NCBI GenBank assembly: GCA_947630795.1
Contig: CANRJC010000011.1
Coordinates: 11,161-75,160, forward strand
Reading direction: 5' to 3'
DNA: 64,000 nucleotides
DNA from: an uncultured Phascolarctobacterium sp.
Lineage (GTDB): Bacteria; Bacillota; Negativicutes; Acidaminococcales; Acidaminococcaceae
The notes under the pieces are model-generated. The model was not told where the DNA came from and searched no databases. It saw only the letters and a program-made list of their open reading frames with translations. Shown here piece by piece: positions 16,898 through 64,000 of the stretch; position 1 is the stretch's first letter, and every line of letters begins with the position of its first letter. The position numbers and the translations under genes were made by a program.

Positions 16898-16900
16898 AAA

Positions 16901-34720: not shown

Positions 34721-34726
34721 AAAGGT

Positions 34727-36216: not shown

Positions 36217-36220
36217 TTTT

Positions 36221-38920: not shown

Positions 38921-38988
38921 AGCGATGCTTTCTGCGGCTCATAAAAAGAAGCGGGCCGCCGACATTCGTTATTCGGGAGGTAAAGATC

Positions 38989-39708
38989 ATGAAAAAATCT
39001 GTTTCTGCTTTGCTTTTGGCAATGTGCCTGTTTTCTCTCAATGCTGCGCCGGCAGCTGCCTATGAATACGATAAAGACGCCATCAAAAAAGAGTTCAAGT
39101 GCAAGCAGGACGCCATTCCTGCCTACGTTCTGGCCGATCTCTTGAAGGCTATGACCGTTTCCGACAACATTTTTGAAAATGACACCCTCCGTTTAGAAGT
39201 GCTGCCGTATATCAAAATGGAATATTTTAACGCAAGCTCGGCCCTGAGAAAGACCATGGCAGCCGATTCTGTCATCATGGTCACAGGCGGGGGCTTTAGG
39301 TTTGTCTCCCTCTATGTTCCCGTTCTGCCTTATTTGAAGGTTGCCGTCACCAACAAGACCGAGCAGCCTTTGGAGATCGATCTGGAGCGCAGCCAAATAA
39401 CTCTCGGCGGCTACTCCGGCCGCGGCGTCCAGACCGGCACCAACTTCAGAAATGCCGCGAGCGCACCCCAGCCCCCTTTGATCGTTTTCCCCAATTCCGC
39501 AAAGACAGTTGCCTTGTGGCGGACAGACTTTAATTTCTTCAGAGGCACTGTAACGGAAGGACCTCGCTGGCTCCCTCCCTTCGACTTGGCTTTGAACACC
39601 AATATTTTGGGCGAGACGATCTTGAAAGTGAACGACAAATATATCGCTTTTGTCCCAAAGGCTGTCATCGACGAAAGCAAGCTGCACTGGCAAAAGATCA
39701 GAAAATAA
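38989..39708 (+). CDS. secreted/lipoprotein-like hypothetical protein
   Basis: The internal ATG with a GGGAGG RBS gives the signal peptide MKKSVSALLLAMCLFSLNAAPAAA. No recognised domain. Confidence 0.65.
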   Translation: MKKSVSALLLAMCLFSLNAAPAAAYEYDKDAIKKEFKCKQDAIPAYVLADLLKAMTVSDNIFENDTLRLEVLPYIKMEYFNASSALRKTMAADSVIMVTGGGFRFVSLYVPVLPYLKVAVTNKTEQPLEIDLERSQITLGGYSGRGVQTGTNFRNAASAPQPPLIVFPNSAKTVALWRTDFNFFRGTVTEGPRWLPPFDLALNTNILGETILKVNDKYIAFVPKAVIDESKLHWQKIRK

Positions 39709-39872
39709 GAGAAAAGGCGGCGAGCGTCGCCCCCATGCTTCGGCTTTTACTGTTTTCGAAAGTCCCGACGGTGTGCGGCCTTCCCGGTCGTGCGCCGTTC
39801 TTTTTTTTGAGCAACGCTGATGAGAGGGAAGAGGGCCGTTTTCTGAAGATTTTTTCAGCAGACATTAACACT

Positions 39873-40020
39873 AATCTTGAAAAGGTGTAAAATTCGGCTT
39901 ATATTAATCTTGAAAAGGTGTAAAATTCGGCTTTCATTATTCTTGAAAACGTGTTAAAATCAAAATTGATCTTGGAAAAAGCACAAGATCCGTGCAAAGC
40001 AGATCTTGAAAGGTGGTAAC
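39873..40020 (+). repeat. five tandem ~32-bp units headed by ATCTTGAAAAGGTG (each unit is promoter-like)
   Basis: Units start at about 39874, 39907, 39940, 39969 and 40003. The first reads TTGAAA-17 nt-TATATT. The array runs into the RBS of the ATPase gene. Confidence 0.85.
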
Positions 40021-41373: not shown

Positions 41374-41427
41374 CCCGGCGGGAGCTGCGCTGTCTCCGTC
41401 TTCGCTTTTTGCAGATCATCGTCACTG

Positions 41428-41474
41428 ATCTTGAAAAGGTGTAAAATTCGGCTTATATTAATCTTGAAAAGGTG
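41428..41474 (+). repeat. 47-bp perfect direct repeat of 39874-39920
   Basis: ATCTTGAAAAGGTGTAAAATTCGGCTTATATTAATCTTGAAAAGGTG is identical on both sides of the ATPase gene. Confidence 0.9.
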
Positions 41475-41555
41475 CATCGCTCTTATACACCCTACTTTTA
41501 CGATCACACCGACGGTGCGCGGTATAAGCAACGGTGCAAAAAGGTTTTATCTGAA

Positions 41556-41903
41556 ATGAAAAAAAACGAGTATAACACTTTGGAAGAATTCACATCGCAA
41601 TATATAGGCGTATGGGGACCGTCCGACGGTCATTGGTTCGGGCTGGATTTTATATATAAAGGAGTTGAATACAGATTTCATACTTGGGCAATGTATAAAG
41701 ACGAGAGGAAAATTTTGCCTGACGGACGCAAGATAGTTTTTCGACTCTATAGGAAAAATGAAGAAGATATCTCGGGAAAAGACTACGTCCTATTGGGAGA
41801 ATTTGCGACTATGGAAGATGCATTGGATAGTACATGCATCGAAGGCACTCCTTTTCGTGAGATCATCATGGACGACGACACCGAGTTGCAGGGACAAGAT
41901 TGA
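41556..41903 (+). CDS. immunity-like small protein, copy 1
   Basis: 115 aa. From nt 41580 on it is identical to copy 2 (offset exactly 800 nt). The start is set at the ATG equivalent to copy 2. The in-frame upstream 28 codons look like the tail of a lost toxin-like gene. Confidence 0.65.
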   Translation: MKKNEYNTLEEFTSQYIGVWGPSDGHWFGLDFIYKGVEYRFHTWAMYKDERKILPDGRKIVFRLYRKNEEDISGKDYVLLGEFATMEDALDSTCIEGTPFREIIMDDDTELQGQD

Positions 41904-41969
41904 GCTAAGACAGGCAGAGTATTCACCTTTGACGGATTATCAAATTTTTCCTATAAAGGAGGTATCATA

Positions 41970-42359
41970 ATGGGATCACGAGGAGCTTTCGTAGATGTAA
42001 ACAGAGGAGACTTTACCTTTAAGGCTGGCGGTAAACATTACAAAACAATCGGTGTTTTGAGCGATGATCCTAATGTTAAGATCATCATTCAGGATGCGCC
42101 AAATGTAAAAGCGCCGGAGTATTCTCATACACCGGGCCGAATATATGCAGTAGTAAAAAACGGTATACTCAAACACTTGGCGTATTACGATGAAAATCAC
42201 AACCAAGCTGTAAATATCGATCTGGCGCACAGTCACGACGGAGTAAAACCGCACCGACATATTTATATGAATCATGACAAAGACTCACCTGGTGTTCCTC
42301 CTAATGCTGCAGAACTAGCTCTGATAGCTAAAATAAAAAAGGAGTTTCATTTGAAATGA
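41970..42359 (+). CDS. small His-rich protein, possible orphan toxin-domain cassette
   Basis: 129 aa with an AAGGAGG RBS. The stop overlaps the start of copy 2 (ATGA). Motifs HSHDGVKPHRHIY. No family recognised with confidence. Confidence 0.6.
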   Translation: MGSRGAFVDVNRGDFTFKAGGKHYKTIGVLSDDPNVKIIIQDAPNVKAPEYSHTPGRIYAVVKNGILKHLAYYDENHNQAVNIDLAHSHDGVKPHRHIYMNHDKDSPGVPPNAAELALIAKIKKEFHLK

Positions 42360-42703
42360 GAAAAAACGAGTATAAATCTTTGGAAGAATTCACATCGCAA
42401 TATATAGGCGTATGGGGACCGTCCGACGGTCATTGGTTCGGGCTGGATTTTATATATAAAGGAGTTGAATACAGATTTCATACTTGGGCAATGTATAAAG
42501 ACGAGAGGAAAATTTTGCCTGACGGACGCAAGATAGTTTTTCGACTCTATAGGAAAAATGAAGAAGATATCTCGGGAAAAGACTACGTCCTATTGGGAGA
42601 ATTTGCGACTATGGAAGATGCATTGGATAGTACATGCATCGAAGGCACTCCTTTTCGTGAGATCATCATGGACGACGACACCGAGTTGCAGGGACAAGAT
42701 TGA
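42356..42703 (+). CDS. immunity-like small protein, copy 2
   Basis: 115 aa, translationally coupled to the preceding gene. 324 nt are identical to copy 1. Confidence 0.7.
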   Translation: MRKNEYKSLEEFTSQYIGVWGPSDGHWFGLDFIYKGVEYRFHTWAMYKDERKILPDGRKIVFRLYRKNEEDISGKDYVLLGEFATMEDALDSTCIEGTPFREIIMDDDTELQGQD

Positions 42704-42904
42704 GCGGCGGAGCCGAAGGCCAAGGCGTATTTATCTTTGCCTTTTTGAAACGAGCGTCGATGATAAAAGGTGAGGCGCTTTCGCCTTCGTCTTTTGCAAA
42801 CGAGGGCTGCTCAAAAAATTTTCTCTTCATGCGCAAAACTGCATATATTTGTTTGACGGCGGGAAATGTTGGGTGTAAAATAGGAGCAGTAAGAGTTTGC
42901 TCCT

Positions 42905-42996
42905 TTAATCGGGTCCCGTGAGACTTCAAGGCAGAAACTTCCCAGTCGTTGCTCAGGCCTTCTGGTGTCCGCTCGGGACGCCGGAAGGCTTTTTTG
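42905..42996 (+). promoter_or_regulatory. pyr operon attenuator: PyrR-box-like element plus an intrinsic terminator
   Basis: GGTCCCGTGAGACTTCAAGG resembles the PyrR binding loop (..UCCAGAGAGGCU..). A strong hairpin GCCTTCTGGTGTCC-GCTC-GGGACGCCGGAAGGC plus TTTTTT (42956-42995) lies about 20 nt before the pyrB start. Confidence 0.5.
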
Positions 42997-43016
42997 GTAC
43001 AGGAGGTATAAAGTGC

Positions 43017-43976
43017 ATGGCTAAAAGCGACATATCTCTGGGCGGCAGAGATATACTGGACCTGGGCAGCCTCAGCAATGAGGAGATCGCTTTGATCTTG
43101 CAAACTGCCGCGGAAATGAAAAAGATCATGAAGAGGGACATCAAAAAAGTTCCTTCCCTGCGGGGAAAGTCCGTCATCAACCTCTTCTACGAACCCAGCA
43201 CCCGCACCCGCACCTCGTTTGAATTGGCGGGCAAATATTTGGGCGCCGACGTGGTGAACATCACCACCTCCTCTTCCAGCGTGGTGAAAGGCGAGTGCCT
43301 GCGTGACACCATCCTTACGGTGCAGTCGATGAACTGCGACGCCATCGTGATGCGCCACCCCATCGAAGGCGCAGCCGCATATGCCGCCAAGGTGGCCAAG
43401 CCCGTGGTGATCAACGCCGGCGACGGCGCTCACGCTCATCCCTCCCAAGGCCTGCTGGATCTTTACACCATCAAAGAAGCGGGGAAGAAGGTAGGCCCCG
43501 GGCTGAAGATGGCCATTTTGGGCGACATCCTCTACAGCCGCGTGGCCCGCACCAACATCGTGGCCTGGACTAGGCTGGGCGCCGAAGTGCACGTGGCCGG
43601 GCCCATGACCCTCATCCCTCACGATATAGAAGCTTTGGGCGTGAAAGTGCACAGCAGAGTGGAAGACGCCATCGAAGGAGCCGACGTCATCGACGTGCTG
43701 CGCATCCAGCTGGAGCGGCAGAAGAAGGGGCTCTTCCCCACCACCAGAGAGTATGCCCGGGTGTGGGGCCTGAACGAAAAACGTTTGGCCTTGGCCAAAA
43801 AAGACGTGCTGGTGCTGCACCCCGGCCCCATGAACAGAGGCTTGGAGATCTCGTGGGAAGTGGGCTACTGCGACAACGCCTACATCCGCGACCAGGTGCA
43901 GAACGGCGTGGCCGTGCGCATGGCTCTATTGTTCTTGACTTTGACGGGAGGGAAGCACTTTGAGAACCTTGATTAA
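43017..43976 (+). CDS. pyrB: aspartate carbamoyltransferase catalytic subunit
   Basis: The in-frame ATG after an AGGAGG RBS gives MAKSDISLGGRDILD. FYEPSTRTRTSFE, HPSQGLLD and HPGPMNRG motifs. Confidence 0.93.
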   Translation: MAKSDISLGGRDILDLGSLSNEEIALILQTAAEMKKIMKRDIKKVPSLRGKSVINLFYEPSTRTRTSFELAGKYLGADVVNITTSSSSVVKGECLRDTILTVQSMNCDAIVMRHPIEGAAAYAAKVAKPVVINAGDGAHAHPSQGLLDLYTIKEAGKKVGPGLKMAILGDILYSRVARTNIVAWTRLGAEVHVAGPMTLIPHDIEALGVKVHSRVEDAIEGADVIDVLRIQLERQKKGLFPTTREYARVWGLNEKRLALAKKDVLVLHPGPMNRGLEISWEVGYCDNAYIRDQVQNGVAVRMALLFLTLTGGKHFENLD

Positions 43977-45255
43977 AAACGGCAGGGTAGTGGACCCCGC
44001 TCAAAAGTTGGATGCGGTGCTGGACATCCTGATCGAAGACGGCCGCATCAAAAAACTGGCCCCCGCCATCATTGAAGCCGCCGACACCGTTTACGATGCC
44101 GCAGGCTTGGTGGTGTGCCCCGGTCTCGTCGACGTTCACACTCACTTGCGCGAACCGGGCTTAGAAGCTAAAGAAGACATCATCACAGGCACCATGGCCG
44201 CCGCCGCCGGCGGCGTCACCACCGTGGCCTGCATGCCCAACACCAAACCGGTCATTGACACCTCCATCATCGTCAGCGGCATCAAAGAAAGAGCCGCCAA
44301 AGAAGCTTATGCTCACGTGGAAGTGATCGGCGCCATCAGCAAGGGCGAAAAAGGCGAAGAACTGTCCGAGATGGTGGACATGGCCCAAAAGGGAGCCATG
44401 GCCTTTTCCGACGACGGCCACTACGTGAAGAGCAGCCGCCTCTTCCTCCTGGCCGCCCGCTACATCGCCCCCTTCGGCAAGGCCCTCATCTGCCACGACA
44501 TCGACCCCGAATTGGACGCGGAAGGCTATATGCACGAAGGTGCCGTTTCCGCCCGCATCGGCGTGCCCGGCGTGCCTGCCATCGCCGAAGATATCTGCGT
44601 GGCGAGAGACTGCATCATCTCCGAATATACGGGAGCTCACGTCCACATCGCTCACGTGGCTTCCAAAGGAGCCATCGACATCATCCGTCAGGCGAAGAAG
44701 AAGGGCATCAACGTCACCTGCGAAGTGGCGGTGCAGCACCTCACCCTCACCGACGAAGCCTGTGCCACTTATGACTCCGCCGCCAGAGTGAACCCGCCGC
44801 TCAGGAGTTTCGATCACGTGCAAGCTCTGCGGGAAGCGGTTTTAGACGGCACCGTGGACGCCATCGTCACCGATCACGCGCCCCACGCTCCCGAAGAAAA
44901 GGACGTGGAGTTCCGCTATGCCCCCAACGGTTTTTGCGGGCTGGAAACTTCACTGGGCGTGATGCTGACGGATCTTTATCACACCGGCATCTTCGACCTT
45001 GCCACCATCATCGATAAAATGAGCTGCAGCCCCGCCCGACTCTTCGGGCTGGATGCAGGCACTTTGCGGGAAGGGGCAGCGGCCGACCTTACCGTCATCG
45101 ATCTTGATAAAGAGTGGACAGTAGACCCCGACAAATTTTATACCCGGGGCAAGGCCACGCCCTATGCAGGCAAAGTTTGCCGGGGCAAAGCGGTGGCCAC
45201 CGTGCTTTCCGGCCGCTTCGTAATGAGAGATGGTGTAGTATGCACGAACAAGTAA
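43960..45255 (+). CDS. pyrC: dihydroorotase
   Basis: PGLVDVHTHLREPG, DDG and ITDHAPH-like (VTDHAPHAPEEK) motifs. 431 aa. TTG start overlapping the pyrB end. Confidence 0.92.
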   Translation: MRTLIKNGRVVDPAQKLDAVLDILIEDGRIKKLAPAIIEAADTVYDAAGLVVCPGLVDVHTHLREPGLEAKEDIITGTMAAAAGGVTTVACMPNTKPVIDTSIIVSGIKERAAKEAYAHVEVIGAISKGEKGEELSEMVDMAQKGAMAFSDDGHYVKSSRLFLLAARYIAPFGKALICHDIDPELDAEGYMHEGAVSARIGVPGVPAIAEDICVARDCIISEYTGAHVHIAHVASKGAIDIIRQAKKKGINVTCEVAVQHLTLTDEACATYDSAARVNPPLRSFDHVQALREAVLDGTVDAIVTDHAPHAPEEKDVEFRYAPNGFCGLETSLGVMLTDLYHTGIFDLATIIDKMSCSPARLFGLDAGTLREGAAADLTVIDLDKEWTVDPDKFYTRGKATPYAGKVCRGKAVATVLSGRFVMRDGVVCTNK

Positions 45256-52005: not shown

Positions 52006-52587
52006 ATGGCTATCCTCACCGAAAAAGACGTAATGGCATTGTTGGAAGAGACTCAGGCGGTGCTGCACGGGCATTTTCTGCTGACCAGCGGCCTGCACAG
52101 CCCCATGTACGTAGAAAAGTTCAACGTGCTGCAGCACCCCAAATACACAGAGCGCCTTTGCCGAGAGATCGCCCGCCGTTATGAGGACGCAGGCGTGGAA
52201 TTGGTGATAGGCCCCATGACCGGGGGCATCCTGCTGGCCCACGAAGTGGGCAAGGCTTTGGGCACCCGGGCCATCTTCACCGAGCGGGAGAACGGCAAGA
52301 TGACTTTGAAGCGGGGCTTTCAGATCCCGGAGGGCACCAAGGTGCTGGTGGTGGAAGACATCACCACTACCGGCGGCAGCATCAAAGAGGTGATCGACGT
52401 GGTGAGAGAGCACGGCGGCGAGGTGATAGGCGTGGGGCTTTTGGTGGACCGCAGCGGCGGCAAGGTAAATTTGGGCGTGCGCACGGAGGCTTTGCTGCAT
52501 TTGAACGTAGAGACGTTCAAGCCGGAGAGCTGCCCGCTGTGCGCCCAGGGCGTGCCTTTCACCAAGAGGGGACGCACGGGCAAATAA
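52006..52587 (+). CDS. pyrE: orotate phosphoribosyltransferase
   Basis: GHFLLTSGLHS. PRPP-binding loop VLVVEDITTTGGS. Confidence 0.92.
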   Translation: MAILTEKDVMALLEETQAVLHGHFLLTSGLHSPMYVEKFNVLQHPKYTERLCREIARRYEDAGVELVIGPMTGGILLAHEVGKALGTRAIFTERENGKMTLKRGFQIPEGTKVLVVEDITTTGGSIKEVIDVVREHGGEVIGVGLLVDRSGGKVNLGVRTEALLHLNVETFKPESCPLCAQGVPFTKRGRTGK

Positions 52588-52680: not shown

Positions 52681-52848
52681 GGGGAAAAAGGGGAAGCGCA
52701 ATTTGTTTTAGAGAGACGGTTATGCTATAATTGTTTTAAAGAGAGATAACGGATCAACGAAAAAGAAGCAAACAGCAGGGAAAATATGATCCCGAATACC
52801 GCAGTTACGATCGAGCGGCAAGTGCAGAGACGAAGGAGAAATGTGAAA

Positions 52849-53724
52849 ATGGCACGAAAGAAAAACAAACTTGAACTCGAATATGTCGAGCGGCTCATTG
52901 AACCGGTTTTTCTCGTGATTAAATGTCTCGGCGGCTCGGCAACTAATGCCGAGATCAGGGATGAAATAATCGAAACGCTCCGGCTTTCGGATGAAGTCGT
53001 AGACGAGCCCCATGTCGGAAAAGCAGCGCAGACGGAATTGGAATATCAATTGGCATGGGCGAGAACATATTTAAAAAATTACGGCGCTATAATTAACACA
53101 GAGCGAGGAGTGTGGGTTATTACTCCTGCTTTTGCAGACACCGTGGCCGTTGACGGGAAAGAGGTCATTAAGACTTTCTTGGAGAAAACCGGCAAATCAG
53201 GCGGTGAAAACGGTACGACACAGGATGACGATCCGTCGAACGACGGGGTAGATCCGCCGGAAGAACTGGAACCGTGGAGAATACAGATCGCAGAAATATT
53301 GCATAGCATGGATCCTTTTGCCTTCGAGCGTCTTTCACAGTTGCTGTTGAGAGAATGCGGTTTTTCGCAGGTAACGGTAACAAAAAAGACAGGCGACGGC
53401 GGGATCGACGGCAGGGGCAAACTTCTGATCAACGGGATATTCAGCTTCAATGTGGCCTTTCAGTGCAAACGGTTCAAGGGGAGCGTAGGCGCTGTGGAGA
53501 TAAGAAATTTCAGAGGATCGTTGACCACGGACAGGGAAAAAGGTATCTTTATCACCACCGGCTCTTTTACGAAAGCTGCCAGAGATGAAGCATCGATTGC
53601 CGGAAAGCAACAGATCGATCTGATCGACGGCGAGGAGTTCATAAATAAGCTGATAGAATATCGGATCGGCGTGAAGGAAAAGGCGGTCTTCGAGGTCGAT
53701 AAAGAGTTTTTCGATAAGGTCTAG
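52849..53724 (+). CDS. mrr: Mrr-type restriction endonuclease (Mrr_N winged helix + Mrr_cat)
   Basis: The internal ATG after AGGAGA gives MARKKNKLELEY. The C-terminal PD-(D/E)XK core reads FERLSQLLLRECGF ... GDGGIDGRG ... VAFQCKRF ... GIFITTGSFTKAA. Confidence 0.85.
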   Translation: MARKKNKLELEYVERLIEPVFLVIKCLGGSATNAEIRDEIIETLRLSDEVVDEPHVGKAAQTELEYQLAWARTYLKNYGAIINTERGVWVITPAFADTVAVDGKEVIKTFLEKTGKSGGENGTTQDDDPSNDGVDPPEELEPWRIQIAEILHSMDPFAFERLSQLLLRECGFSQVTVTKKTGDGGIDGRGKLLINGIFSFNVAFQCKRFKGSVGAVEIRNFRGSLTTDREKGIFITTGSFTKAARDEASIAGKQQIDLIDGEEFINKLIEYRIGVKEKAVFEVDKEFFDKV

Positions 53725-53886: not shown

Positions 53887-53941
53887 GTTAAAAAGAAAGC
53901 TCATTAGTCGCCCGGCAGGCGACTTTTTTGTGCGACGGGTT

Positions 53942-54447: not shown

Positions 54448-55968
54448 ATGGCGGGAGAAACTGTACAGGTAGGTAAATACACGCTGGAATCTCTTACAAC
54501 AGGTATGTACTCCGATCCCAAAATTGTCTATCGCGAATATATTCAAAACAGTGTAGATTCTCTAGAAAATGCTGTTGCCCTCGGTGTGATTGAAAAGTCA
54601 AGTATGCGTATAGACATCATCGTAAAAGCAGAGACCTCTTACATATGTATAAAAGACAACGGAATGGGTATTCCTTCTGCTGAGGCGCCTGAAACCTTGA
54701 TGAATGTCGGCAGTTCAAAAAAACGCAATTCCAACAATCGCGGTTTCCGCGGCATTGGTCGCCTTGGCGGGATGAGTTACTGCGATACCCTTGTGTTTAC
54801 GACATCTGCTGAGAAAGAGGCAGTTAAGACTGTTATCACCTTTGACTGTAAAAGACTTCGTAATTTACTTATTCCTGGTAAATACGAAGATATGAGTTTG
54901 TCTGAAGTATTGGAAGAAATTACGAAGGTTGATTTTCTTCCGGAAAAACCAGAGCTGCACTATTTGATCGTGGAAATGAAGGAGGTAAATGGTTTTTCAG
55001 ATTTACTCGACATTGATGCCGTAAAAAGTTATATATCGCAGGTAGCGCCACTCCCATACCAATTGCGTAGTTTTATTTATGCTCCTCAACTCAAAAAATA
55101 TCTGAGCAAGAATGGATATGTTGTTGAGGAGTTTCCAATTTTTCTTGGTGAGGATGAATTAAATCTGGCGCCAGTGTACAAACCGAACAAAAGTAGATTC
55201 AAATCCGACAGAGCAAAGCGAACAACCGATGAAATCACAAGCATGTCATACTTCGATGTAATAATCGATGGTGAATTATACGCACTGGGATGGTATGGTA
55301 ATTGTGGATGGCTCGGGACCTTGTCTGATAAGGAGTTGTCCGGCATCAGAGTAAGGAAAGGAAATATCCTTATCGGTGACAACAAAACGATGAATATAAT
55401 TTTTAAAGAAGCTCGTTTCAATGGGTGGACACAGGGCGAAATATTCATCGTTACTGATAAACTTGTTCCAAACGCTCGCAGAGACGACTTTGAACAGAAT
55501 GATGCTTACTATGATCTCATTAACGCTTTAAGTAATGGAGTGAGCTTAGAAATTTCCAGAGCTATTCGTGAAGCCTCGTTTACAAGAAATAATCCTAACG
55601 CGAAGGCATTGAGGGAGATTGAGAAGGTGATTGCAGAGGCTTCCAATGCTGTTTCGGAAGGATTTAATTCGAGCATTGATAAAGAAACACTCTTAAAATC
55701 TTTGACTGAAAGTGCTATTTCGTTATCCGAATTAAGAGTGAACGATGATTTTTCACAAAAGAAAAAAGAACTTGAAGAAAAGATCGAAGCGGCTATCAAA
55801 GAAGTTTCAGAAAGCAAAAACTTCAAAATTAACCATATTAATTCCAGTATAGATAAAAAGAGTAAGCAAGTTTTAAGAGTAGTTAGTAACATCCTTTCAA
55901 AGAAACTTGCCAAGTCCCTTGTTGATGAGATTATTGCAGAAATTGTTTCAGAATTGAACAGAAAGTAG
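54448..55968 (+). CDS. GHKL-superfamily ATPase (Hsp90/MORC-like, HATPase_c_3 type)
   Basis: Bergerat-fold motifs: N-box YREYIQNSVDSLENA, G1 IKDNGMGIP, G2 GFRGIGRLGGMSY. Coiled-coil-like Lys/Glu-rich C-terminus. GGAGGG RBS. Confidence 0.85.
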   Translation: MAGETVQVGKYTLESLTTGMYSDPKIVYREYIQNSVDSLENAVALGVIEKSSMRIDIIVKAETSYICIKDNGMGIPSAEAPETLMNVGSSKKRNSNNRGFRGIGRLGGMSYCDTLVFTTSAEKEAVKTVITFDCKRLRNLLIPGKYEDMSLSEVLEEITKVDFLPEKPELHYLIVEMKEVNGFSDLLDIDAVKSYISQVAPLPYQLRSFIYAPQLKKYLSKNGYVVEEFPIFLGEDELNLAPVYKPNKSRFKSDRAKRTTDEITSMSYFDVIIDGELYALGWYGNCGWLGTLSDKELSGIRVRKGNILIGDNKTMNIIFKEARFNGWTQGEIFIVTDKLVPNARRDDFEQNDAYYDLINALSNGVSLEISRAIREASFTRNNPNAKALREIEKVIAEASNAVSEGFNSSIDKETLLKSLTESAISLSELRVNDDFSQKKKELEEKIEAAIKEVSESKNFKINHINSSIDKKSKQVLRVVSNILSKKLAKSLVDEIIAEIVSELNRK

Positions 55969-55975
55969 GCTTACT

Positions 55976-57940
55976 ATGGAAGTACTACCATCTGAGTATC
56001 AGAATATTGAGCTCTCTAGATATGAGAAAATATTCGTGCGCTACGCCATTTCTAGCGATCAGTATGGCTTTCTTTTATTGAAAGTAAATCCCACTATGAT
56101 CGAAAATGAGAGTATGAATGTTGTGATTACTTCTAGAGGGGTTGTGTTTTTTAAGTTTTTGGAGAAAATCTCGGATGCAACCCTATTTGGAAGTGTAATG
56201 GAATCTTATAAATGCGTCTATTCTATGTCAGAAGAAATTATTGTCAAGAAACTTCTCAGCAATAAATCAATATCCGAGAATGGAACGGCTTTGAAGTTCC
56301 CAATCAATATCGTCCATGTTTTTCCGTGTCTCAAGCAAACAGATATTGAAAAGGTGAAGAATGATACTATTGCAGAATTTGTTGAAAAACATTGTTTGTT
56401 CGCAGAGAAGTTTTCTGAACTGCGTCAAGGATTTGCCGCCGTTTTAAATCACTTTTTGGATACTCCTATTATTACCATATCAGCTAATACAATGCAGATC
56501 TCCGATTTGAATGTAAATTCCATAATGCAGAGGATCGCTCCTGAATATGTTACTGTGCGAGTTGCTTGCATTGACTGTGCCAAAACAACACCTGGTGTAG
56601 ATAGTGAGCTTTTGGTTATAGATGAGAATGATGTTGTAGTTAAGGCTTTCCGCCTGGATAAGGAGCAAATCAACATTGTAAATAGAATCAGCAGGGATGA
56701 CCCAAATCAGCTGATACTGGCTTGTGCAGGATCCGGAAAAAGTGTATTGCTCATATCCAAATGTTTTAAGGCAGCGCAAATGAATCCTGACAAGAAGTTC
56801 CTAATCACATGTAAAAATGAAAATCTTCATTCACTTTATATTTGGTTTATTGACCGCGCCGGGCTTCATAATAAGAATGTTGAATGCATGACTTTTCATG
56901 CTCTTTGCAAGAAACTTCTTGAAAAGAACAAGTTTAGTGTAAAACCCAAAGATTTTGAAGGCTGGGTCAATTCGGCTATCGAAAAGCTAAATCAGGGTAA
57001 AATTACAGACAGATACTACGGTATCTTTATTGATGAGGTGCAGGCATTTGAACCCGAATGGTATAAGTTTTGTTTCAATCTCCTTGAAAACAAGGATACT
57101 AAAGATCATATATTTGTTATCTGTGGAGACAAAACGCAACGCTTGGACAAGCTCAAAAAGCATGGCCAAGCACCCTGGCAGGCTGGAGAAGGATATCCGA
57201 ATTACCGGGGTGGAAACAAAAACATACGCATAGAAAAGAATTACCGTAACTGTTATGAAATTAACGAATACATAAATCGGTATGTTTCTAACGTAAGACG
57301 ATATCTCTATGAAATACAAGATGATTATAAGATTGATCCCGATATGTTTTTGCGGGGGCAGGCTATCTTTCATGGGGAAGGAGTGCGATACATTCAGCTG
57401 ACTACAAAAAAAGTGGAATGTGAGATTGATAATATTATTCATTCTATCAAAGAAATACATGATATGAAAGAAATTCCATATGATGAAATTGCTGTGATAA
57501 TGTACCAAGGAAAGTTTCGAAAGAAAATTTCTGGCTGGTTGGACAAAAACTATTTTTTGCAGCAGAATTTAGAAAAAAGAATGGATGCTGAAAATATTCC
57601 GTACTGCCGCCTTTACTCTACTGAAGGGGCCTGGCAAGATCATTTTGGAGATACAGGCGGTGTTCGTATCATTAAATTTCAAACATCGCTAGGTTTGGAT
57701 TTTCGGGCAGCCATTATTTGCGGTCTTGTTACCTTGGGTGAGTATGAGCATATTAAGAATCCTGAATGGGAGTCTTTAAAAACTGATAAAGAAAAATATG
57801 AAAATACGATTACCGATATTCAACGTGCCATTCAAAACCTTTATGTGGCTTGCACAAGAGCTAAAGAGCTCCTATATATTATCGCTCCGGAAAGCGAAGA
57901 AGAATCCATCTTTATGAAGCTGCTCAAAGACTCAATTTAG
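55976..57940 (+). CDS. UvrD/Rep-family (SF1) helicase-like protein with a ~230-aa N-terminal domain of unknown, possibly degenerate NERD-like, type
   Basis: Walker A ILACAGSGKSVLL, motif II GIFIDEVQAF, motif III ICGDKTQRL, motif VI LYVACTRAKELLYI. 7-nt gap after the preceding gene. Confidence 0.85.
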   Translation: MEVLPSEYQNIELSRYEKIFVRYAISSDQYGFLLLKVNPTMIENESMNVVITSRGVVFFKFLEKISDATLFGSVMESYKCVYSMSEEIIVKKLLSNKSISENGTALKFPINIVHVFPCLKQTDIEKVKNDTIAEFVEKHCLFAEKFSELRQGFAAVLNHFLDTPIITISANTMQISDLNVNSIMQRIAPEYVTVRVACIDCAKTTPGVDSELLVIDENDVVVKAFRLDKEQINIVNRISRDDPNQLILACAGSGKSVLLISKCFKAAQMNPDKKFLITCKNENLHSLYIWFIDRAGLHNKNVECMTFHALCKKLLEKNKFSVKPKDFEGWVNSAIEKLNQGKITDRYYGIFIDEVQAFEPEWYKFCFNLLENKDTKDHIFVICGDKTQRLDKLKKHGQAPWQAGEGYPNYRGGNKNIRIEKNYRNCYEINEYINRYVSNVRRYLYEIQDDYKIDPDMFLRGQAIFHGEGVRYIQLTTKKVECEIDNIIHSIKEIHDMKEIPYDEIAVIMYQGKFRKKISGWLDKNYFLQQNLEKRMDAENIPYCRLYSTEGAWQDHFGDTGGVRIIKFQTSLGLDFRAAIICGLVTLGEYEHIKNPEWESLKTDKEKYENTITDIQRAIQNLYVACTRAKELLYIIAPESEEESIFMKLLKDSI

Positions 57941-57956
57941 TGAAAGGTAGGAAATT

Positions 57957-59270
57957 ATGAATCTGATTGAAAATAAAACGAAATTTAAGCATTCCGGTAG
58001 GCCAGGCTGGGGTGTCGGAACTTTCATAAAATCCGAGAATGACTATGTAACGATCAACTTTGAAAACGTAGGGCCTAAAAAATTCAGGAAAACAAGTATT
58101 AACGAAGAACTGAAGATCATAAAAGGAACCGATAATAGTACCGCAAATAAAAGTTTACAAAGTAGGCCAATAGACGGCTTGACGAACGCACAAAGCAGTT
58201 CGTTGATTCAATATGATGGGGAAGAAGGCAATGGTTTTGCCGGCAAAAATGTTATTGAAGCGTTTGAAGGTAACGACACAGTTTTATTTAATGAGACATA
58301 CATAATCATTGGAAAACATACGAAAGCGTTTAAATTACATGCTTTGTATGACTTGATAATTATGGGAGATGTGACTGTTCAAGAGTGCAAAGTAAACGGC
58401 TCATTAACAGTTCTGGGTGATGCTCGTATTAATAATCTGGACTGTCAAAATGGGTTTATTTGTAAAGGCGATTTGTATTCAGATAATATTTATGTTGGTG
58501 GGGATATGATCGTTGATTCTATCAACTGTGATGAGTTGCTCTGTGACGGAAATGTAGTTGTCAAAAAATCAGTAAACATTAACCGTAATGCAAAAATAGT
58601 AGAGACTATGATAGCATGCGAAGGAATAACGGGTGAAGGCAAGTTCTCCGCTCTCAATGCCATAGCAAACGAATATTTCGAATTTGATGGTGACTGCGAA
58701 GGAAAAATTGTAGAACTGGAAACGGATACTACAATCAGTAATACAGTTCCCGTTAAAGCTGTTTCTTTAGAGCCAATTGAAGAAATTATCAAATTAGCAA
58801 ACCAAAAACTCATCGAGGAGTACAAGAGATATCCTGAAATGGACGAAGAACAAATAATGGCACATTTAAGACATTTGAGCTTAATCGAGAGTGACGAATT
58901 AAAAACACTTCCTGTTGTGGAACAGATGTTTTCTTGTCTGGTAGAGATGTCTTATAAAAATAAAATTGGGACTATTGAAGAGTATTTGACAGTTCTTGAA
59001 GCAGAGAAAGTATTGCCAGCTGAAATATATTCTTATGAAACAATCGAGCACATAGGTAATAGCTACCTTCCTAAAGCGCAGAGTGAGGTTGAGAAATTAA
59101 GTTTTGAACCTACATCTATTCAGCAGTTCGCTAAGGTTCTTTTGCTGGCAGTAAAGCTTAAAGAAAGAGTATCCGATAATTGGGGAATCATTATGGAAAA
59201 ACTTTTCGAATCTATTGGGTTAAAATACGCAACTGTAAGTAAGATGATTGAAAGAAATAAGCCTATTTAG
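57957..59270 (+). CDS. hypothetical protein: N-terminal Tudor/SH3-like segment + bactofilin-like beta-helix repeats + helical C-terminus
   Basis: FKHSGRPGWGVGTFIKSENDYVTINFENVGPKKF resembles the HxxFGxGxV C-terminal domain of PcrA/UvrD (DUF3553-like). Residues ~150-230 show hexapeptide-like repeats (GDVTVQECKVNGSLTVLGDARINNLDCQNGFICKGDLYSDNIYVGGDMIVDS...). 16-nt gap from the helicase gene. Confidence 0.75.
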   Translation: MNLIENKTKFKHSGRPGWGVGTFIKSENDYVTINFENVGPKKFRKTSINEELKIIKGTDNSTANKSLQSRPIDGLTNAQSSSLIQYDGEEGNGFAGKNVIEAFEGNDTVLFNETYIIIGKHTKAFKLHALYDLIIMGDVTVQECKVNGSLTVLGDARINNLDCQNGFICKGDLYSDNIYVGGDMIVDSINCDELLCDGNVVVKKSVNINRNAKIVETMIACEGITGEGKFSALNAIANEYFEFDGDCEGKIVELETDTTISNTVPVKAVSLEPIEEIIKLANQKLIEEYKRYPEMDEEQIMAHLRHLSLIESDELKTLPVVEQMFSCLVEMSYKNKIGTIEEYLTVLEAEKVLPAEIYSYETIEHIGNSYLPKAQSEVEKLSFEPTSIQQFAKVLLLAVKLKERVSDNWGIIMEKLFESIGLKYATVSKMIERNKPI

Positions 59271-59365
59271 GCACAGAATAACAAATTTATAAGCTAAGAT
59301 CAGCATGGACATTATATGAGGAACAGCAATTAATCTAATTATTGCAAGAGCATCGGAGAAGGAAA

Positions 59366-62300
59366 ATGACCGTAAGCGAGGTAAATAGAATGCCTAACAT
59401 AAAAAGTATTGACCGTGAACTACTTGCTAATGCAATTTTGCAGGGTTTTAAAGGTAAAATAACAGGTGAAGGTACCGATGTAGTAATTGGGGAAAACCCA
59501 GAAAATAGATATTTCGTCGGAAAGCTCTTGCCCGTTAGTGATTCACAAAAATCCTCTTGGGGATCTGATTTTTTTATAGAATCTATAGGAACTGATTTTT
59601 ACATTGCTATAGAAGAAATAAAGACAGCACAGCTTACCATTTATCCAAAAGGGGACTTTTATTATCGTGCGTATCCTACTCTTGAACAGCAGCGTACTGC
59701 TATGCTCAAAAGAGCCAATGAACTGTTTGAAACAAGTTTTTCAAGCTTTGATGAGATTATTAAACGATATGAAGAGGATTATTCAGTATTATCTAAACTC
59801 AAAGAAAAACTCATTCCAATTTATAAGAAAGTGCAAATCAACCGTAGCGACTTTACGCTAACATTTAATTTGCATGAACTTCTGCGAGATAATCCACAGT
59901 TCGGTTTTGCAGGCGCAAATCACGCACAGAACATGCAATTTGCAGAATTTCTTGACAACCTCCAAAATTCGATTTGTGAGGATGAATACTGCTATACCAC
60001 GGAACTATTTGAAAAAACTACTGTAAAGGACTTGTTGACAGAACAAAATTATAAAAATTTTCTTAAAAGGAATGCCAAACAAGGCCCTCCTATACGTCAG
60101 AATTGGAATGTATATGTTGATTTGACCTTAAAACTCATTAAGGACAGAGACGAATATTTGATATCTGTTGCCCTTGTTAATGGATCTCAGGTTCAATCAA
60201 ACAGCGTTACTCATAAATCGAATAAAAAATCCAATGATAAGCCTACAATCGAGACACTTTTTAACTCCGGGATGGAAATCAAGCTCGATGGGGCTAATTT
60301 CTCTACTATTGACCTGGATTTCTTTGCTGAAGATTACAAATACAACAGCAGCCAGAAAGCTGTAGGAAATAATTGTTCCGTCATTTATGATGCGGACAAC
60401 AACTCGATTATAACAAACCATCTGCCTGTATTTATTCAAAAACGGTTGCTCACAAATGATGAGTTTGCTGTCTCGTTCCAATCATTGATCGATGACCCTG
60501 TTACAATTCTCAGGGACATCCATAATAATATGCTCGCTGAACACAAAAATTGGGAAAATATTCTTGAAGAAAAGAGACCAGTACTTTCGCCTGTTGGGAT
60601 TAAAAATATGCAGGAAGAAATTAACGAGTTTGCACGAGAAATCCGTCGCTTTGAGTTTGGTATTGAGATAATCAACGATTACCCAATCATTATGAAAAGC
60701 TTCAAAAATATGAACCAGACGTTCTTGAATACCTCCAAAAAATATAGTACTTGGAGATTGTTTCAGATTGTTTATATCGTTTCGCTCATACCAGATATAG
60801 CGGCATGTGATGGGACTGCGATTCTTGATGTTCACAAAAAACAGAGCACGCTTAACGAGGTTTCTCTTCTATACTTCCCTACAGGTGGCGGTAAGACTGA
60901 AGCTTTCCTTGGGGTTTTGGTTTTTAATCTGTTCTTTGATAGATACCGCGGAAAGGAATGCGGCGTAACATCAATCCTCAGATATCCATTAAGGCTTCTT
61001 TCTGTTCAGCAGGTACAGCGTTTGGCTAATGTTCTTGCTCAAGCTGAACTGATCAGGAGAAATGACAAAGCAATATTCAGAACTGAAGAATTTTCTCTTG
61101 GCTATTTTGTTGGTGATGCGAACACGCCTAACAAAATAGAAAAGAAAAATGTACTAAAGTATAGGAGAGCTTCACAAGAAGTCCTAGATGAGGAGCGAAT
61201 TATTGATGTTTGCCCTTTTTGTGGCAAAAAGACAGTTCATTTGAAATTCGATGAAAACTCTTATCGTCTGATTCATTATTGTGACAATACGGAATGCAGG
61301 TCAAATGGCATTTTACCGATTTTTATGGTTGACCACGAAATCTACCGTTATTTACCTTCTGCCATTATAAGTACAGTTGATAAGCTTGCCATTTTGGGGA
61401 ATAACCCGAATTTTAGAAATATTTTTTCTGGAGCTACCCACAGATGCCCAAAGCATGGTTTTACGAACACTACAAAATGTATGGTAGATAGGGAGTTTTG
61501 CGATGTTGATATTGCCGATTTCGAAGAAGTTGAAATGTATGACCCAGCACCTACTTTGTTCATACAAGATGAGTTGCACTTGATTCGTGAAAGTCTGGGA
61601 ACGTACGCTTCTCATTATGAATCTTTTATTGATTACTATGTGAAAAATGTATCACCGTCACATCGACCTATCAAAATCATCGGTGCTACTGCAACAATTT
61701 CCTCTTACAAGACGCAGATTTCTCAGTTGTATAACAAGGATCCCATTCGCTTCCCCTGTGCTTCTCCAGATTTGAAACGAAATTTCTATTCATATATTGG
61801 GAATGATGATATTCAACGTTTAATTATAGGATACGCACCTTTCGGTAAAGCTATTATCAATTCTGTAGTCTACTCACTTAAATATATGAGAGAAGTTGTA
61901 TATGACTATGTGAAATGTCCTGAAAAGGTCTTGAATATCCCCGGTATAGGTATTGATTCTATTGATGAGGCATTGGAAATACTGAAAGACTACTGGATCT
62001 TCCTTGAATATAACAATATCAAGCGAGACGGGAATAATGTTGAAGGTGCTCTCGAAACACCTATTAATGTTGAGCTCCGCAAAGATGGAGTAACTCCTTT
62101 CAAAACAAGAAAAATGACCGGTGACGAAACCTTTCAGGACGTGCGTGAGGTTTTATCGAAGGTAGAAAACAATGAGGATGTGTTTAACGGTGTAAACCTT
62201 ATTGTTGCAACATCGATGATTTCTCATGGGGTCGATGCTGATCGATTTAACATAATGTTCTTCTATGGTATGCCTGGTAATACGGCTGAGTACATTCAGG

Positions 62301-62833
62301 CATACAGCAGAACCGGAAGAAAATATACAAGCATTGTTATCGATATAATGAGACCTTCCAGAGAAACAGATCAAAGCTATCTAAAAAACTTCGTAAACTT
62401 TCATGAGTTTAAAGATATTCTGGTCGAATCTGTTCCCATCAACCGTTGGGCAACGAAAGCCATAGATTGGACGTTGCCGGGTATCTTCACAGGTCTACTG
62501 CTGATGAAATATGACCCCCAATTACAATCAAGTTGCGGTTCGCAATTCTTTATGAACAACATTAAAAAGGCAATTTCTAATGGCTACTTGGATAAGGCAA
62601 CTGTTATCGAAGAATTAAAACTGGCTTATGGATGCACTGTTGCAGGACAAGTAAATGAGCTTGGAAACCAATACAAAGAAAAGATTGAAAGTTTCGTTGA
62701 GGATGTTTTTGCAAGAATCTCTGATAAGAACTGGGAAAAGGAAAATATCTTTTCTGGATTTGAACTTATGGGTTATCACATCATGAATAGTATGAGAGAT
62801 ACCGATACTCAATTGATTATCGAACTGGAATGA
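59366..62833 (+). CDS. large SF2 DExH helicase with zinc-ribbon inserts (DrmA-like architecture)
   Basis: About 500 aa of unassigned N-terminal region, then Walker A YFPTGGGKTEAF, motif II FIQDELHLI, motif V/VI IVATSMISHGVDADR ... QAYSRTGR. Cys clusters CPFCGKK...YCDNTEC and HRCPKHG...KC lie inside the RecA1 region. The start could be ATG 59366 or ATG 59390 (GAGGT RBS). Confidence 0.85.
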   Translation: MTVSEVNRMPNIKSIDRELLANAILQGFKGKITGEGTDVVIGENPENRYFVGKLLPVSDSQKSSWGSDFFIESIGTDFYIAIEEIKTAQLTIYPKGDFYYRAYPTLEQQRTAMLKRANELFETSFSSFDEIIKRYEEDYSVLSKLKEKLIPIYKKVQINRSDFTLTFNLHELLRDNPQFGFAGANHAQNMQFAEFLDNLQNSICEDEYCYTTELFEKTTVKDLLTEQNYKNFLKRNAKQGPPIRQNWNVYVDLTLKLIKDRDEYLISVALVNGSQVQSNSVTHKSNKKSNDKPTIETLFNSGMEIKLDGANFSTIDLDFFAEDYKYNSSQKAVGNNCSVIYDADNNSIITNHLPVFIQKRLLTNDEFAVSFQSLIDDPVTILRDIHNNMLAEHKNWENILEEKRPVLSPVGIKNMQEEINEFAREIRRFEFGIEIINDYPIIMKSFKNMNQTFLNTSKKYSTWRLFQIVYIVSLIPDIAACDGTAILDVHKKQSTLNEVSLLYFPTGGGKTEAFLGVLVFNLFFDRYRGKECGVTSILRYPLRLLSVQQVQRLANVLAQAELIRRNDKAIFRTEEFSLGYFVGDANTPNKIEKKNVLKYRRASQEVLDEERIIDVCPFCGKKTVHLKFDENSYRLIHYCDNTECRSNGILPIFMVDHEIYRYLPSAIISTVDKLAILGNNPNFRNIFSGATHRCPKHGFTNTTKCMVDREFCDVDIADFEEVEMYDPAPTLFIQDELHLIRESLGTYASHYESFIDYYVKNVSPSHRPIKIIGATATISSYKTQISQLYNKDPIRFPCASPDLKRNFYSYIGNDDIQRLIIGYAPFGKAIINSVVYSLKYMREVVYDYVKCPEKVLNIPGIGIDSIDEALEILKDYWIFLEYNNIKRDGNNVEGALETPINVELRKDGVTPFKTRKMTGDETFQDVREVLSKVENNEDVFNGVNLIVATSMISHGVDADRFNIMFFYGMPGNTAEYIQAYSRTGRKYTSIVIDIMRPSRETDQSYLKNFVNFHEFKDILVESVPINRWATKAIDWTLPGIFTGLLLMKYDPQLQSSCGSQFFMNNIKKAISNGYLDKATVIEELKLAYGCTVAGQVNELGNQYKEKIESFVEDVFARISDKNWEKENIFSGFELMGYHIMNSMRDTDTQLIIELE

Positions 62834-62847
62834 GGGTGGTGAATAAT

Positions 62848-64000
62848 ATGAGTTCTAAACGGCAGATGAAAAGAGGAAAGAATCAGTCTTTGTACAAATA
62901 TCTTCCCGAAACTTGGATAGATTTTTCTGTTCGAGGCAAGGAAAGGAAACAATATATTGCTAAAGTTGTAAGATGGAACAGCGAAAAGCTAGACGAAATA
63001 AATGTCAAAAGACTTATTAGAACCGTTAATGAGTTAGTTCGCTCGTTTGAAAACCAATGCCAAACACATGGCGCTATTAAGCCAACTGTTGGTTTTGGGA
63101 CTGAACTTACTAAGGATAATTGTTATGTTCTTACCCCTAAAGCTTCTGACGAAGAAAGAGGTATTGTCGCTCAGATTAGCCCTTTGACTTTCTATTGTAA
63201 GAGCTGCCATAAGGTTTATCAGTTCAGTAGCGAGGAAGAATATCAAAAGCATAAATATTGTACTAATCCGGAATGCCATCAATCCGAGCTTGCTCAGTTC
63301 CGGCAGATATATTTCTGCAAGTGTGGATATGCAACAGACAGGCATAATCCACGTTGTCCAGAGCACGGATATCAATATGTAAAATGGGACGGAAACTATA
63401 ATTTTATTTGTTACAGATGTAACAAGACTATTCCCATGCAAGTGAAGTGCCCGATTTGTGGTGAAATATTGAGGCCTAAAGTTGCCCTTGATCCAGCTCA
63501 GTTTTTTGTGTTTAGTTTAAGTCTTATTGACTTAATCGACGAAAAATTGGAAAATTTTATTTCTGAAACCTCTTATGGGACATATATAACATTCGCATAC
63601 TGGCTTGAATTAATAAATAAAGAGGAGCTTGATGAAATTATAAGGAATGGAATTGTTTCTGATCCGGATATATATCAAAAAGAATATGACAGAATGTATA
63701 AGGAAATGCTTCCTCTTGGGGCGACTGTCGCAGCGCAGGCGGCAAAAATAGCTGCCGACAAAATATGCGGAAATAGATTTAATGACATCGTTAATGACCT
63801 AAGAACCAAGGTTTTTTCTACAAAAAGCGATATGTCCAGCATGGCTGAACGAATTCTGGAGTATGAAATGGTAACCAGGCTAGATGATGTATCTGATTTG
63901 GATTCTGCTATAAATGTCGCTCGTCTTTTAAATACAAACGCAAATCCGAAACAATACGCACAGATTGCAAAGCGCTTTGGCATTAATAGCGCCAGAGTTT
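62848..64000 (+). CDS. Cys-rich (multi zinc-ribbon) protein, 3' end outside the window; DUF1998/DrmB-like by position and cysteine pattern
   Basis: Not in the ORF track because it has no stop in the window. My own translation from ATG 62848 (RBS GAGGGTGG) stays open to nt 64000: MSSKRQMKRGKNQSLYKYLPETWIDF ... FYCKSCHKVY ... YCTNPECHQ ... FCKCGYATDRHNPRCPEHGY ... FICYRCNK ... KCPICGE ... It starts 14 nt after the helicase stop. Confidence 0.75.
   Translation, partial: MSSKRQMKRGKNQSLYKYLPETWIDFSVRGKERKQYIAKVVRWNSEKLDEINVKRLIRTVNELVRSFENQCQTHGAIKPTVGFGTELTKDNCYVLTPKASDEERGIVAQISPLTFYCKSCHKVYQFSSEEEYQKHKYCTNPECHQSELAQFRQIYFCKCGYATDRHNPRCPEHGYQYVKWDGNYNFICYRCNKTIPMQVKCPICGEILRPKVALDPAQFFVFSLSLIDLIDEKLENFISETSYGTYITFAYWLELINKEELDEIIRNGIVSDPDIYQKEYDRMYKEMLPLGATVAAQAAKIAADKICGNRFNDIVNDLRTKVFSTKSDMSSMAERILEYEMVTRLDDVSDLDSAINVARLLNTNANPKQYAQIAKRFGINSARV

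Follow-up and report, generated by a model that had tools for sequence, protein, structure and literature searches.

Can a large helicase gene followed directly by a gene for a cysteine-rich partner belong to a DISARM-like system when no methylase gene is visible nearby? The question was raised by the 3' end of a 64,000-nucleotide (nt) stretch of DNA from an uncultured Phascolarctobacterium sp. (contig CANRJC010000011.1, positions 11,161 to 75,160; hereafter, the window), in which an initial annotation had likened two adjacent genes, D and E, to the DrmA-DrmB pair of DISARM. The analysis presented here indicated that D and E probably form a split, DISARM-type helicase of the YprA family that is central to a horizontally mobile defence cassette of eight genes. 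In this cassette (Table 1), the genes are ordered as GHKL ATPase A, UvrD-like helicase B, variable adaptor C, DrmA-type helicase D, DrmB-type partner E, NERD-helicase F, radical-SAM enzyme G and a second GHKL ATPase, H.

Homology of genes D and E to DrmA and DrmB

The open reading frame (ORF) of gene D, on the + strand, ends at 62833 and has two possible starts, a TTG at 59342 and an ATG at 59366. The ATG is preceded by GGAGAAGG and agrees with the public gene call of 1155 amino acids (aa). All motifs of D quoted in the initial annotation were found where it had placed them: PENRYFVGKLLP (aa 45-56, nt 59498-59533), WRLFQIVYIVSLIPDI (aa 463-478), the Walker A motif GGGKT (aa 507-511, nt 60884-60898), DELH (aa 735-738), QAYSRTGR (aa 978-985) and the Cys inserts CPFCGKK, CDNTEC, CPKHG and CMVDREFC (aa 616-712). 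GGGKT, DExH and QAYSRxGR were kept in 50/50 relatives of D. An ORF of 1155 codons in 37% GC DNA, together with this conservation of helicase motifs, indicated that D is not a chance feature.

D matched the PADLOC DrmA model PDLC02576 over its full length (residues 29-1129, E = 3.9e-174), as well as nine further PADLOC DrmA models. In the PDB, it matched Serratia DrmA (7s9v_A, 4.2e-55) over a region that took in the zinc-ribbon/Cys inserts, and an N-terminal 'RYxVGKLxP' motif of D was weakly aligned with the same structure. Models of Dpd, the 7-deazaguanine DNA modification/restriction system, gave only 14.7 bits (DpdJ) and 12.9 bits (DpdF). Judged from these sequence matches, D is a DrmA homologue. 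In another sample of the same strain (locus L004:6557-9986, corresponding to 59366-62833 of the window), a frameshift splits D into ORFs of 616 aa and 530 aa; with approximately 3x coverage of that contig, the split reflects an error of assembly or else marks a pseudogenised copy. At two further loci, L085 and L134, entire cassettes were full of frameshifts.

A spacer of 14 nt separates the stop of D (62833) from the ATG of E (62848), as had been reported. The window ends within E, and full-length E was therefore taken from metagenome contig L001 (6993-8864), whose DNA is identical to that of the window over the shared part. PADLOC DrmB was matched by the window part of E (384 aa) at 1.3e-10 and by full-length E at 1.4e-56. 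Full-length E also matched the DrmB chain of the PDB entry (7s9v_B, 3e-7), with the motif C..DP.C...C..C...E.SC..N..LDR aligned. An AlphaFold2 (AF2) model based on 59 diverse homologues had a predicted local distance difference test score (pLDDT) of 93 and a predicted template-modelling score (pTM) of 0.90. When this model was compared with the PDB by Foldseek, DrmB 7s9v_B was the sole significant match (5.4e-14, TM 0.51/0.59) and was aligned from end to end. Sequence and predicted fold both point to E being a DrmB homologue. The resemblance to a DrmA/DrmB pair, originally proposed from gene architecture, has thereby been replaced by measured homology for both genes.

The initial annotation had likened E to a DUF1998-type zinc-binding protein and had noted at least four CxxC-type pairs at approximately 63190-63465. 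Six Cys/His pairs were found in this region (C117xxC120, C138x4C143, C157xC159, C170xxH173, C188xxC191 and C201xxC204), of which C117, C120, C138, C143, C159, C201 and C204 were invariant or nearly so among 59 E homologues. E, as a DrmB homologue, has a conserved DUF1998/MZB cysteine cluster (C570, C576, C583, C586 and C594). That cluster, however, lies past the window end, and the pairs within the window are N-terminal zinc ribbons rather than the DUF1998 motif. Such ribbons fit a DrmB protein, since the solved DrmB structure has four metal sites in addition to the DUF1998 site (PMC9142583).

Division of helicase and OB-CON-DUF1998 array into two genes occurs only in the DISARM branch of the YprA helicases (PMC12458937). 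D and E are putatively assigned, by split-gene layout and Cys cluster, to the DISARM-like clade of YprA/MrfA helicases. The YprA family also includes the repair helicase MrfA (PMC12458937), a GHKL protein with UvrD recalls mismatch repair, and some copies of the cassette are on conjugative elements; the locus might accordingly be read as a DNA-repair or mobile-element maintenance module, in which an MrfA/YprA-like helicase is combined with a MutL/UvrD-like set, instead of an immunity system. This reading was considered highly improbable. D and E matched DrmA and DrmB, not the repair branch, and their split layout is a hallmark of the DISARM branch (PMC12458937). In addition, the cassette has a patchy distribution, a foreign base composition and Mrr, McrB or WYL neighbours, and the best PADLOC model for F was a NERD-helicase tied to defence reverse transcriptases.

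Composition, conservation and mobility of the cassette

Genes F, G and H were taken from contig L001, which matched positions 55856-64000 of the window with 0 mismatches in 8145 nt. From A to H, successive intergenic distances are 7, 16, 95, 14 and 3 nt, followed by overlaps of 8 and 1 nt. Because of these small gaps and overlaps, genes A to H were regarded as one transcription unit. A simple scan of the only sizeable gap (59271-59365, before D) revealed no promoter-like or terminator-like site.

Table 1. Features of the cassette and its surroundings. Positions are those of the window; positions of F, G and H are window equivalents derived from contig L001. The last row refers to a related cassette elsewhere.
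Feature	Position	Strand	Length (aa)	Present/assessable loci	Remarks
pyrE	52006-52587				5' of Mrr gene
Mrr-type type IV restriction endonuclease	52786-53724				48% GC; Pfam Mrr_N and Mrr_cat; between pyrE and the 37% GC cassette
Terminator-like hairpin	53906-53924				3' of Mrr gene
A, GHKL ATPase 1	54448-55968	+	506	30/38	Opens cassette; Pfam HATPase_c_3, 1.3e-11
B, UvrD-like superfamily 1 (SF1) helicase	55976-57940	+	654	44/44	220-aa N-terminal domain; Pfam UvrD-helicase, UvrD_C
C, fast-evolving adaptor	57957-59270	+	437	34/44	N-terminal DUF3553-like module, beta-helix-like core, helical C-terminus
D, DrmA-type superfamily 2 (DExH) helicase	59366-62833	+	1155		PADLOC, NCBIfam and PDB matches
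E, DrmB-type partner	62848-64000	+	624		First 384 aa in window; gene end equivalent to 64722
N-terminal zinc-ribbon cluster of E	63196-63459	+			Cys/His pairs, aa 117-204
F, NERD PD-(D/E)xK nuclease fused to SF1 helicase	64726-66390		554	46/48	Pfam NERD and SF1 helicase domains
G, radical-SAM enzyme	66383-68443		686	38/43	GCGNKCGFC motif; Pfam Radical_SAM
H, second GHKL ATPase	68443-69948		501	31/37	HATPase_c_3
DrmAB-free G-H cassette	L082:6093-15188				Also L080-84, L086, L089, L097, L100, L103, L106, L120, L122, L136

Searches with Pfam, PADLOC and NCBIfam detected no methyltransferase, PLD, DrmD or DrmE signature in any of the eight proteins, and no PADLOC v2 model covers A, C, G or H in such a context. 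Among the DISARM components, DrmA and DrmB (the latter as a separate gene directly after DrmA) are thus present, whereas DrmC, a methyltransferase and DrmD/DrmE were not detected. DrmC and DrmM were also absent downstream on L001 and in about 50 related loci. The non-canonical context noted at the outset, which comprised neither methylase nor PLD and neither SNF2 nor DrmE genes, consequently extends beyond the window, with no DrmD or DrmE match among A, B, C, F, G and H. Neither a lack of homology of D and E, nor a canonical DISARM operon downstream, nor an assignment of the pair to another known family emerged from the analysis.

A search of 1.84 billion representative proteins yielded 1098 DrmB-like clusters. 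A locus scan, with one genome per species and an alignment of a 17-sequence DrmB subset as query, returned 56 loci; the 59-sequence DrmB alignment proved too diverse for this use. Gene presence was scored by tblastn with the eight proteins on 51 bacterial loci, with assessable loci as denominator (Table 1). Of the 33 loci that could be assessed in full, 23 had all eight genes in the same order, and this held down to a DrmB identity of about 40%. Hosts were mostly Clostridia, and the cassette also occurred in Desulfovibrio, Selenomonas, Bacteroidetes and Thermoguttaceae assemblies. The five remaining loci were haloarchaeal and served as a positive control. Four of these, with full flanks (L060-63), showed the canonical order DrmE-DrmA-DrmB-PLD, with a weak DrmE_C match and a 295-aa PLD gene directly after DrmB. 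Their recovery demonstrated that the locus search detects the DISARM PLD where it is present.

Beyond gene H, the cassette stops in relatives and is followed by unrelated flanks. These flanks vary: L008-10, for example, lie beside conjugation genes and a relaxase of an integrative and conjugative element (ICE), L005-7 beside a WYL regulator, the copy in the window beside Mrr and L035 beside McrB. No flank family occurred in more than 5/58 loci, and the flanks of these 58 loci contained no recurrent methyltransferase or PLD. These observations bear on the possibility that the locus is an ordinary DISARM with its genes for methyltransferase, PLD and DrmD/DrmE at other places in the genome. In DISARM, DrmC is frequently absent or not required and might be supplied in trans (PMC9142583), and the window itself stops inside E. 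Nevertheless, the identical contig L001 carries F, G and H directly downstream, the eight proteins include no DrmC, DrmD, DrmE or DrmM according to PADLOC, and a fixed partner in trans is unlikely for a cassette that travels between hosts on ICE-like DNA and, at 37% GC, forms an island within a genome of 57% GC. A trans-encoded DISARM was therefore regarded as a very remote prospect.

The base composition of the window is consistent with such movement. GC content, computed on the window, falls from 56.6% (1-52000) to 37.4% (54448-64000), and the drop is located just past the pyr genes and the Mrr type IV restriction gene. The low-GC stretch is filled by the five co-directional genes A to E on the + strand; the entire cassette spans 15.5 kb at 37% GC within a 57% GC host. 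The DNA of the final ~10 kb of the window is foreign, and downstream of the pyrimidine operon the Mrr gene and the low-GC cassette together constitute a small defence island. Flavonifractor copies consisting of B-D-E-F-G-H (L038, L040) have a GC content of 62%, like their high-GC host, which shows that low-GC DNA is not the only setting of the cassette family; the copy in the window, at 37% GC, is a recent import. Horizontally mobile and carried on conjugative elements, the cassette is common among Clostridia from the gut and from digesters. Among viral contigs, a single copy was found, and its contig coincides with one from a Desulfosporosinus genome; PLSDB plasmids contained only distant haloarchaeal DrmA-like genes (<=35% identity). 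No tRNA gene that could mark an integration site was found within the window. A second stretch of lower GC content (48-52% vs 57%) lies upstream of the pyr genes, at 34000-44000.

Modular organisation and the G-H pair

The paralogues A and H, 37% identical over their full length, stand at the two ends of the cassette. A contains the N-box EYIQNSVD and the motifs DNGMGI and GFRGIG. The GHKL N-box was kept in 34/34 homologues of A and 31/31 of H, the DxGxG and GFRGIG motifs were also conserved in both families, and in a profile search the N-termini of A and H matched Hsp90/TRAP1/HtpG ATP-binding domains in the PDB. B matched 'NERD+UvrD' (4e-22) and GajB models of PADLOC, and its relatives kept GSGKS (45/46) and DExQ (46/46); an interpretation of its N-terminal domain as a degenerate NERD domain was unsupported (hhalign probability 0.8%). 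The best PADLOC match of F was a reverse transcriptase-associated NERD-helicase (2.8e-70), and the NERD signature D..ExK was kept in all 46 F homologues.

Gene C is the fastest-evolving gene of the cassette, with 22-30% identity in comparisons in which D and E retain 42-46%. Its Pfam matches were weak (DUF3553, 4.7e-5; beta-helix families) and a PDB sequence search gave no match. In an alignment of 18 homologues, the core was conserved and add-ons varied by locus, including an internal DUF3553-like insert (L037, L041 and L045), C-terminal extensions, helical tails and, in L035, a NusA-type KH domain (2e-27). This pattern of a kept core with changing add-ons is as expected of a specificity or recruitment subunit. 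A comparison of C with G gave no support for their being paralogues.

Division of the locus into a GHKL/UvrD sub-module and a DrmAB sub-module, as put forward in the initial annotation, did not hold up. The UvrD-like helicase B, present with DrmAB in 44/44 loci, is its most constant partner, and it is the GHKL genes, the adaptor and the radical-SAM gene that are accessory. A related interpretation is that two or three independent systems stand side by side: a GHKL protein with the UvrD-like helicase, DrmAB with the NERD-helicase, and the radical-SAM enzyme with a GHKL protein. Identity patterns of G/H unlike those of B/D/E/F, the existence of reduced variants, the occurrence of G-H in another cassette and a few permuted loci (L039, L095 and L114) are all compatible with it. 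However, even the permuted loci keep all modules together, B was never found apart from D-E, and the fixed order in 23/33 loci extends across many bacterial families with tight or overlapping junctions. Moreover, the paralogues A and H bracket the set, and no A-B or G-H pair was found by an unrelated system, save for one alternative cassette. Independent systems were therefore judged distinctly unlikely. The core of the cassette is B-D-E-F, to which A(+C) and G-H are accessory modules.

Several observations weighed against the interpretation of D and E as the DISARM-type core of an eight-gene defence cassette. Pfam MZB/DUF1998 (PF09369) did not detect E at E<=0.05, whereas it detected the haloarchaeal DrmB used as control. 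The matches of D to NCBIfam DISARM_DrmAS (6.4e-111, 372 bits) and of full-length E to NCBIfam DrmB_fam (5.4e-26, 91.5 bits) scored far under the curated cut-offs of 950 and 240 bits, respectively; D and E therefore represent a divergent branch rather than an orthodox DISARM. F, G and H are known from the matching contig L001 and lie outside the window itself. Reduced forms occur as B-D-E (Neobacillus, Ureibacillus), B-D-E-F and B-D-E-F-G-H (Flavonifractor, 62% GC), so that the eight genes are modules and not one indivisible machine. Identities of G/H, and partly of A, were discordant with those of B/D/E/F: in L014-18, D and E showed 71% and 75% identity but G and H only 49% and 40%, a pattern that was reversed in L022-26. 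This discordance indicates module exchange. Finally, analogy is the only basis for the roles proposed below for A, B, C, G and H, and the defence role of the cassette is a prediction.

Two loci illustrate further variation around the core. In L035 (Bacillus pinisoli; 13710-17983, 5017-6561), A-B-C-D-E-F is followed not by G-H but by genes for proteins of 174 aa and 714 aa and for an Hsp70-like protein (546 aa), and McrB lies further downstream. In L049 (Neobacillus sp.; 2-4462), the minimal B-D-E set comes after the gene for a 1486-aa protein that contains a sacsin-type (GHKL-like) domain, and a PLD-ResIII helicase is encoded 1.7 kb downstream. The position of the sacsin-type protein suggests that the GHKL association persists there in another form.

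G is assigned to its family by Pfam Radical_SAM, precomputed for its relatives, and by the NCBI name 'radical SAM protein'. It has one conserved CxxxCxxC motif, kept in 37/37 homologues. An AF2 model of a G homologue from the cassette (pLDDT 81) consisted of an N-terminal Rossmann-like domain, a radical-SAM barrel and a helical C-terminal domain (~270 aa). In Foldseek, the PDB folds that matched the model best were the B12-dependent radical-SAM methylases MgmA (1.4e-5) and TsrM (6e-5) and the tRNA-modifying MiaB, with E-values of 1e-5 to 7e-5 and TM-scores of only 0.3-0.5. On the basis of this fold likeness, G is predicted to be a B12-type radical-SAM enzyme (class B, with a cobalamin-binding domain). 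A PDB sequence/profile search for G gave nothing usable beyond a marginal GapR-like match (E=0.013).

A G-anchored scan of metagenome contigs yielded 80 loci, of which 46 were DrmAB-type cassettes and 19 represented a DrmAB-free cassette (Table 1). The latter encodes a ParB_N-like protein, a 136-aa ORF, an SNF2 helicase (DpdE/ZorD-like), a second ParB_N-like protein, G and H, followed, where sequence beyond H was read (L081 and L082), by a 189-aa ORF and a DndB/DpdB-like protein. This cassette likewise appears to be uncharacterised. Its existence indicates that G-H is a portable pair, and this alternative company, typical of DNA-modification systems, supports, but does not establish, a nucleic-acid-modifying role of G-H.

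Such a role would allow the cassette to act as a restriction-modification system, in which G with H writes a novel radical-SAM-dependent self mark on DNA (e.g., C-methylation) that replaces DrmM, and B-D-E-F restricts unmodified DNA. Consistent with this proposal, the cassette contains no classical methylase, G-H moves as a unit, and the nearest folds of G, which combines an N-terminal Rossmann-like domain with a single conserved CxxxCxxC, are B12-dependent methyltransferases and the nucleic-acid-modifying MiaB. In addition, the SNF2 (DpdE-like), ParB-like and DndB/DpdB-like genes found beside G-H are typical of Dnd and Dpd. However, B-D-E or B-D-E-F loci devoid of G-H (L020, L049 and L052) and the replacement of G-H in L035 are unexpected for an essential self mark, the TM-scores of G are modest, and the marginal GapR-like match is the sole hint of DNA binding. 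A radical-SAM-dependent self mark was therefore considered possible but doubtful. If true, it would represent restriction-modification with a radical-SAM modifier instead of a classical methyltransferase, and G-H would be a portable module shared with an SNF2/ParB/DndB-type cassette.

Proposed mechanism and comparison with known systems

The cassette is taken to be a variant of a DISARM-like defence system, for which we infer the following mechanism. DrmAB (D-E) would act as an ATP-driven sensor and translocase that loads on single-stranded DNA (ssDNA) or 5'-overhang DNA of an invader, as reported for Serratia DrmAB, which loads on ssDNA or 5' overhangs, translocates and shows ssDNA gating (PMC9142583). 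F, which occupies the slot of DrmC after DrmB (position per PMC12458937), would supply the DNA-cutting and unwinding effector and is likely to degrade DNA, and B would provide a second, obligatory motor. Like MutL and MORC, A and H may be ATP-gated DNA clamps that license SF1 helicases, as MutL licenses UvrD (PMC2292703). C, whose Tudor-like, KH and helical modules are interchangeable, may tune recruitment or sensing, while G and H would constitute a portable accessory module, used to mark nucleic acid or else serving as an additional effector. Self would probably be distinguished from non-self by DNA structure (free ends, ssDNA), as in the methylase-free Druantia III, and not by a methyl mark of the classical kind, or alternatively by a mark made by G.

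Among other helicase-centred systems, Druantia type III and ARMADA/TALON also rely on YprA-family helicases for immunity, and Druantia III also functions without a methylase (PMC12458937). ARMADA II has an additional UvrD/GajB-like helicase and TALON a NERD nuclease (PMC12458937). Their helicases, however, are single genes with C-terminal nuclease domains that belong to the other defence clade, and the cassette has no DruH, BrxHII/PglX, TPR-CSD or TBP genes. Dpd shares with the cassette the DISARM-like YprA clade and a multi-helicase restriction set, and the sister G-H cassette holds DpdE-like SNF2 and DpdB/DndB-like genes. In contrast to D-E, DpdJ is one fused gene. The cassette contains neither tgt-like DpdA nor preQ0 synthesis genes, and a PADLOC scan of its proteins identified no Dpd modification genes.

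MORC/paraMORC operons also place GHKL ATPases next to helicases and restriction-fold nucleases, and in the MutL-UvrD partnership a GHKL protein adjoins a UvrD-type helicase (PMC2292703). The survey of these operons includes no DrmAB-type helicases or radical-SAM partners (PMC2292703), and A and H of the cassette are similar in sequence to Hsp90-type ATP-binding domains. The gene set was not found described in PMC12458937 and its supplements or in the MORC, CoCoNuT and Dnd surveys, nor did full-text literature searches turn it up, a coverage that is incomplete and leaves novelty unproven; within it, we could not find a description of DrmAB combined with extra helicases, two GHKL proteins and a radical-SAM enzyme without methylase or PLD. 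The McrBC-linked cassette termed 'DISARM-like' in the CoCoNuT paper is an SNF2/PglX set, later ARMADA, and not the present cassette. DISARM-like nuclease swaps and uncharacterised DISARM-like classes have been described (PMC12458937).

DISARM itself, in classes 1 and 2, comprises DrmA, DrmB and DrmC with DrmD and DrmMI or with DrmE and DrmMII. Absent from the cassette are a methyltransferase (DrmMI, N6A, or DrmMII, C5), the PLD DrmC, DrmD (SNF2) and DrmE; instead, it adds a helicase-nuclease of the NERD-SF1 type, a UvrD-like helicase as an obligatory component, two GHKL ATPases, a variable adaptor and a radical-SAM enzyme, and its E is about 16-25% identical to canonical DrmB. Shared with DISARM are the split of the helicase into separate DrmA and DrmB genes, the DUF1998/MZB site with its four Cys at the C-terminus, additional zinc sites, Cys inserts within the helicase, a nuclease encoded directly after DrmB and a setting in defence islands or mobile elements. 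How DISARM kills phage DNA and avoids self is still unclear; DrmC can be dispensed with, and the nuclease actually responsible has yet to be identified. The cassette family represents a natural experiment on this point, in which the DrmAB core is kept and all else is swapped: a helicase-nuclease stands in the place of DrmC, there is no methylase, and two MutL/MORC-like ATPases and a radical-SAM enzyme are added. It may bring to light an immune role in which a radical-SAM enzyme acts on nucleic acid, and it could reveal the functional needs of DrmAB and be used to test whether discrimination by DNA structure suffices.

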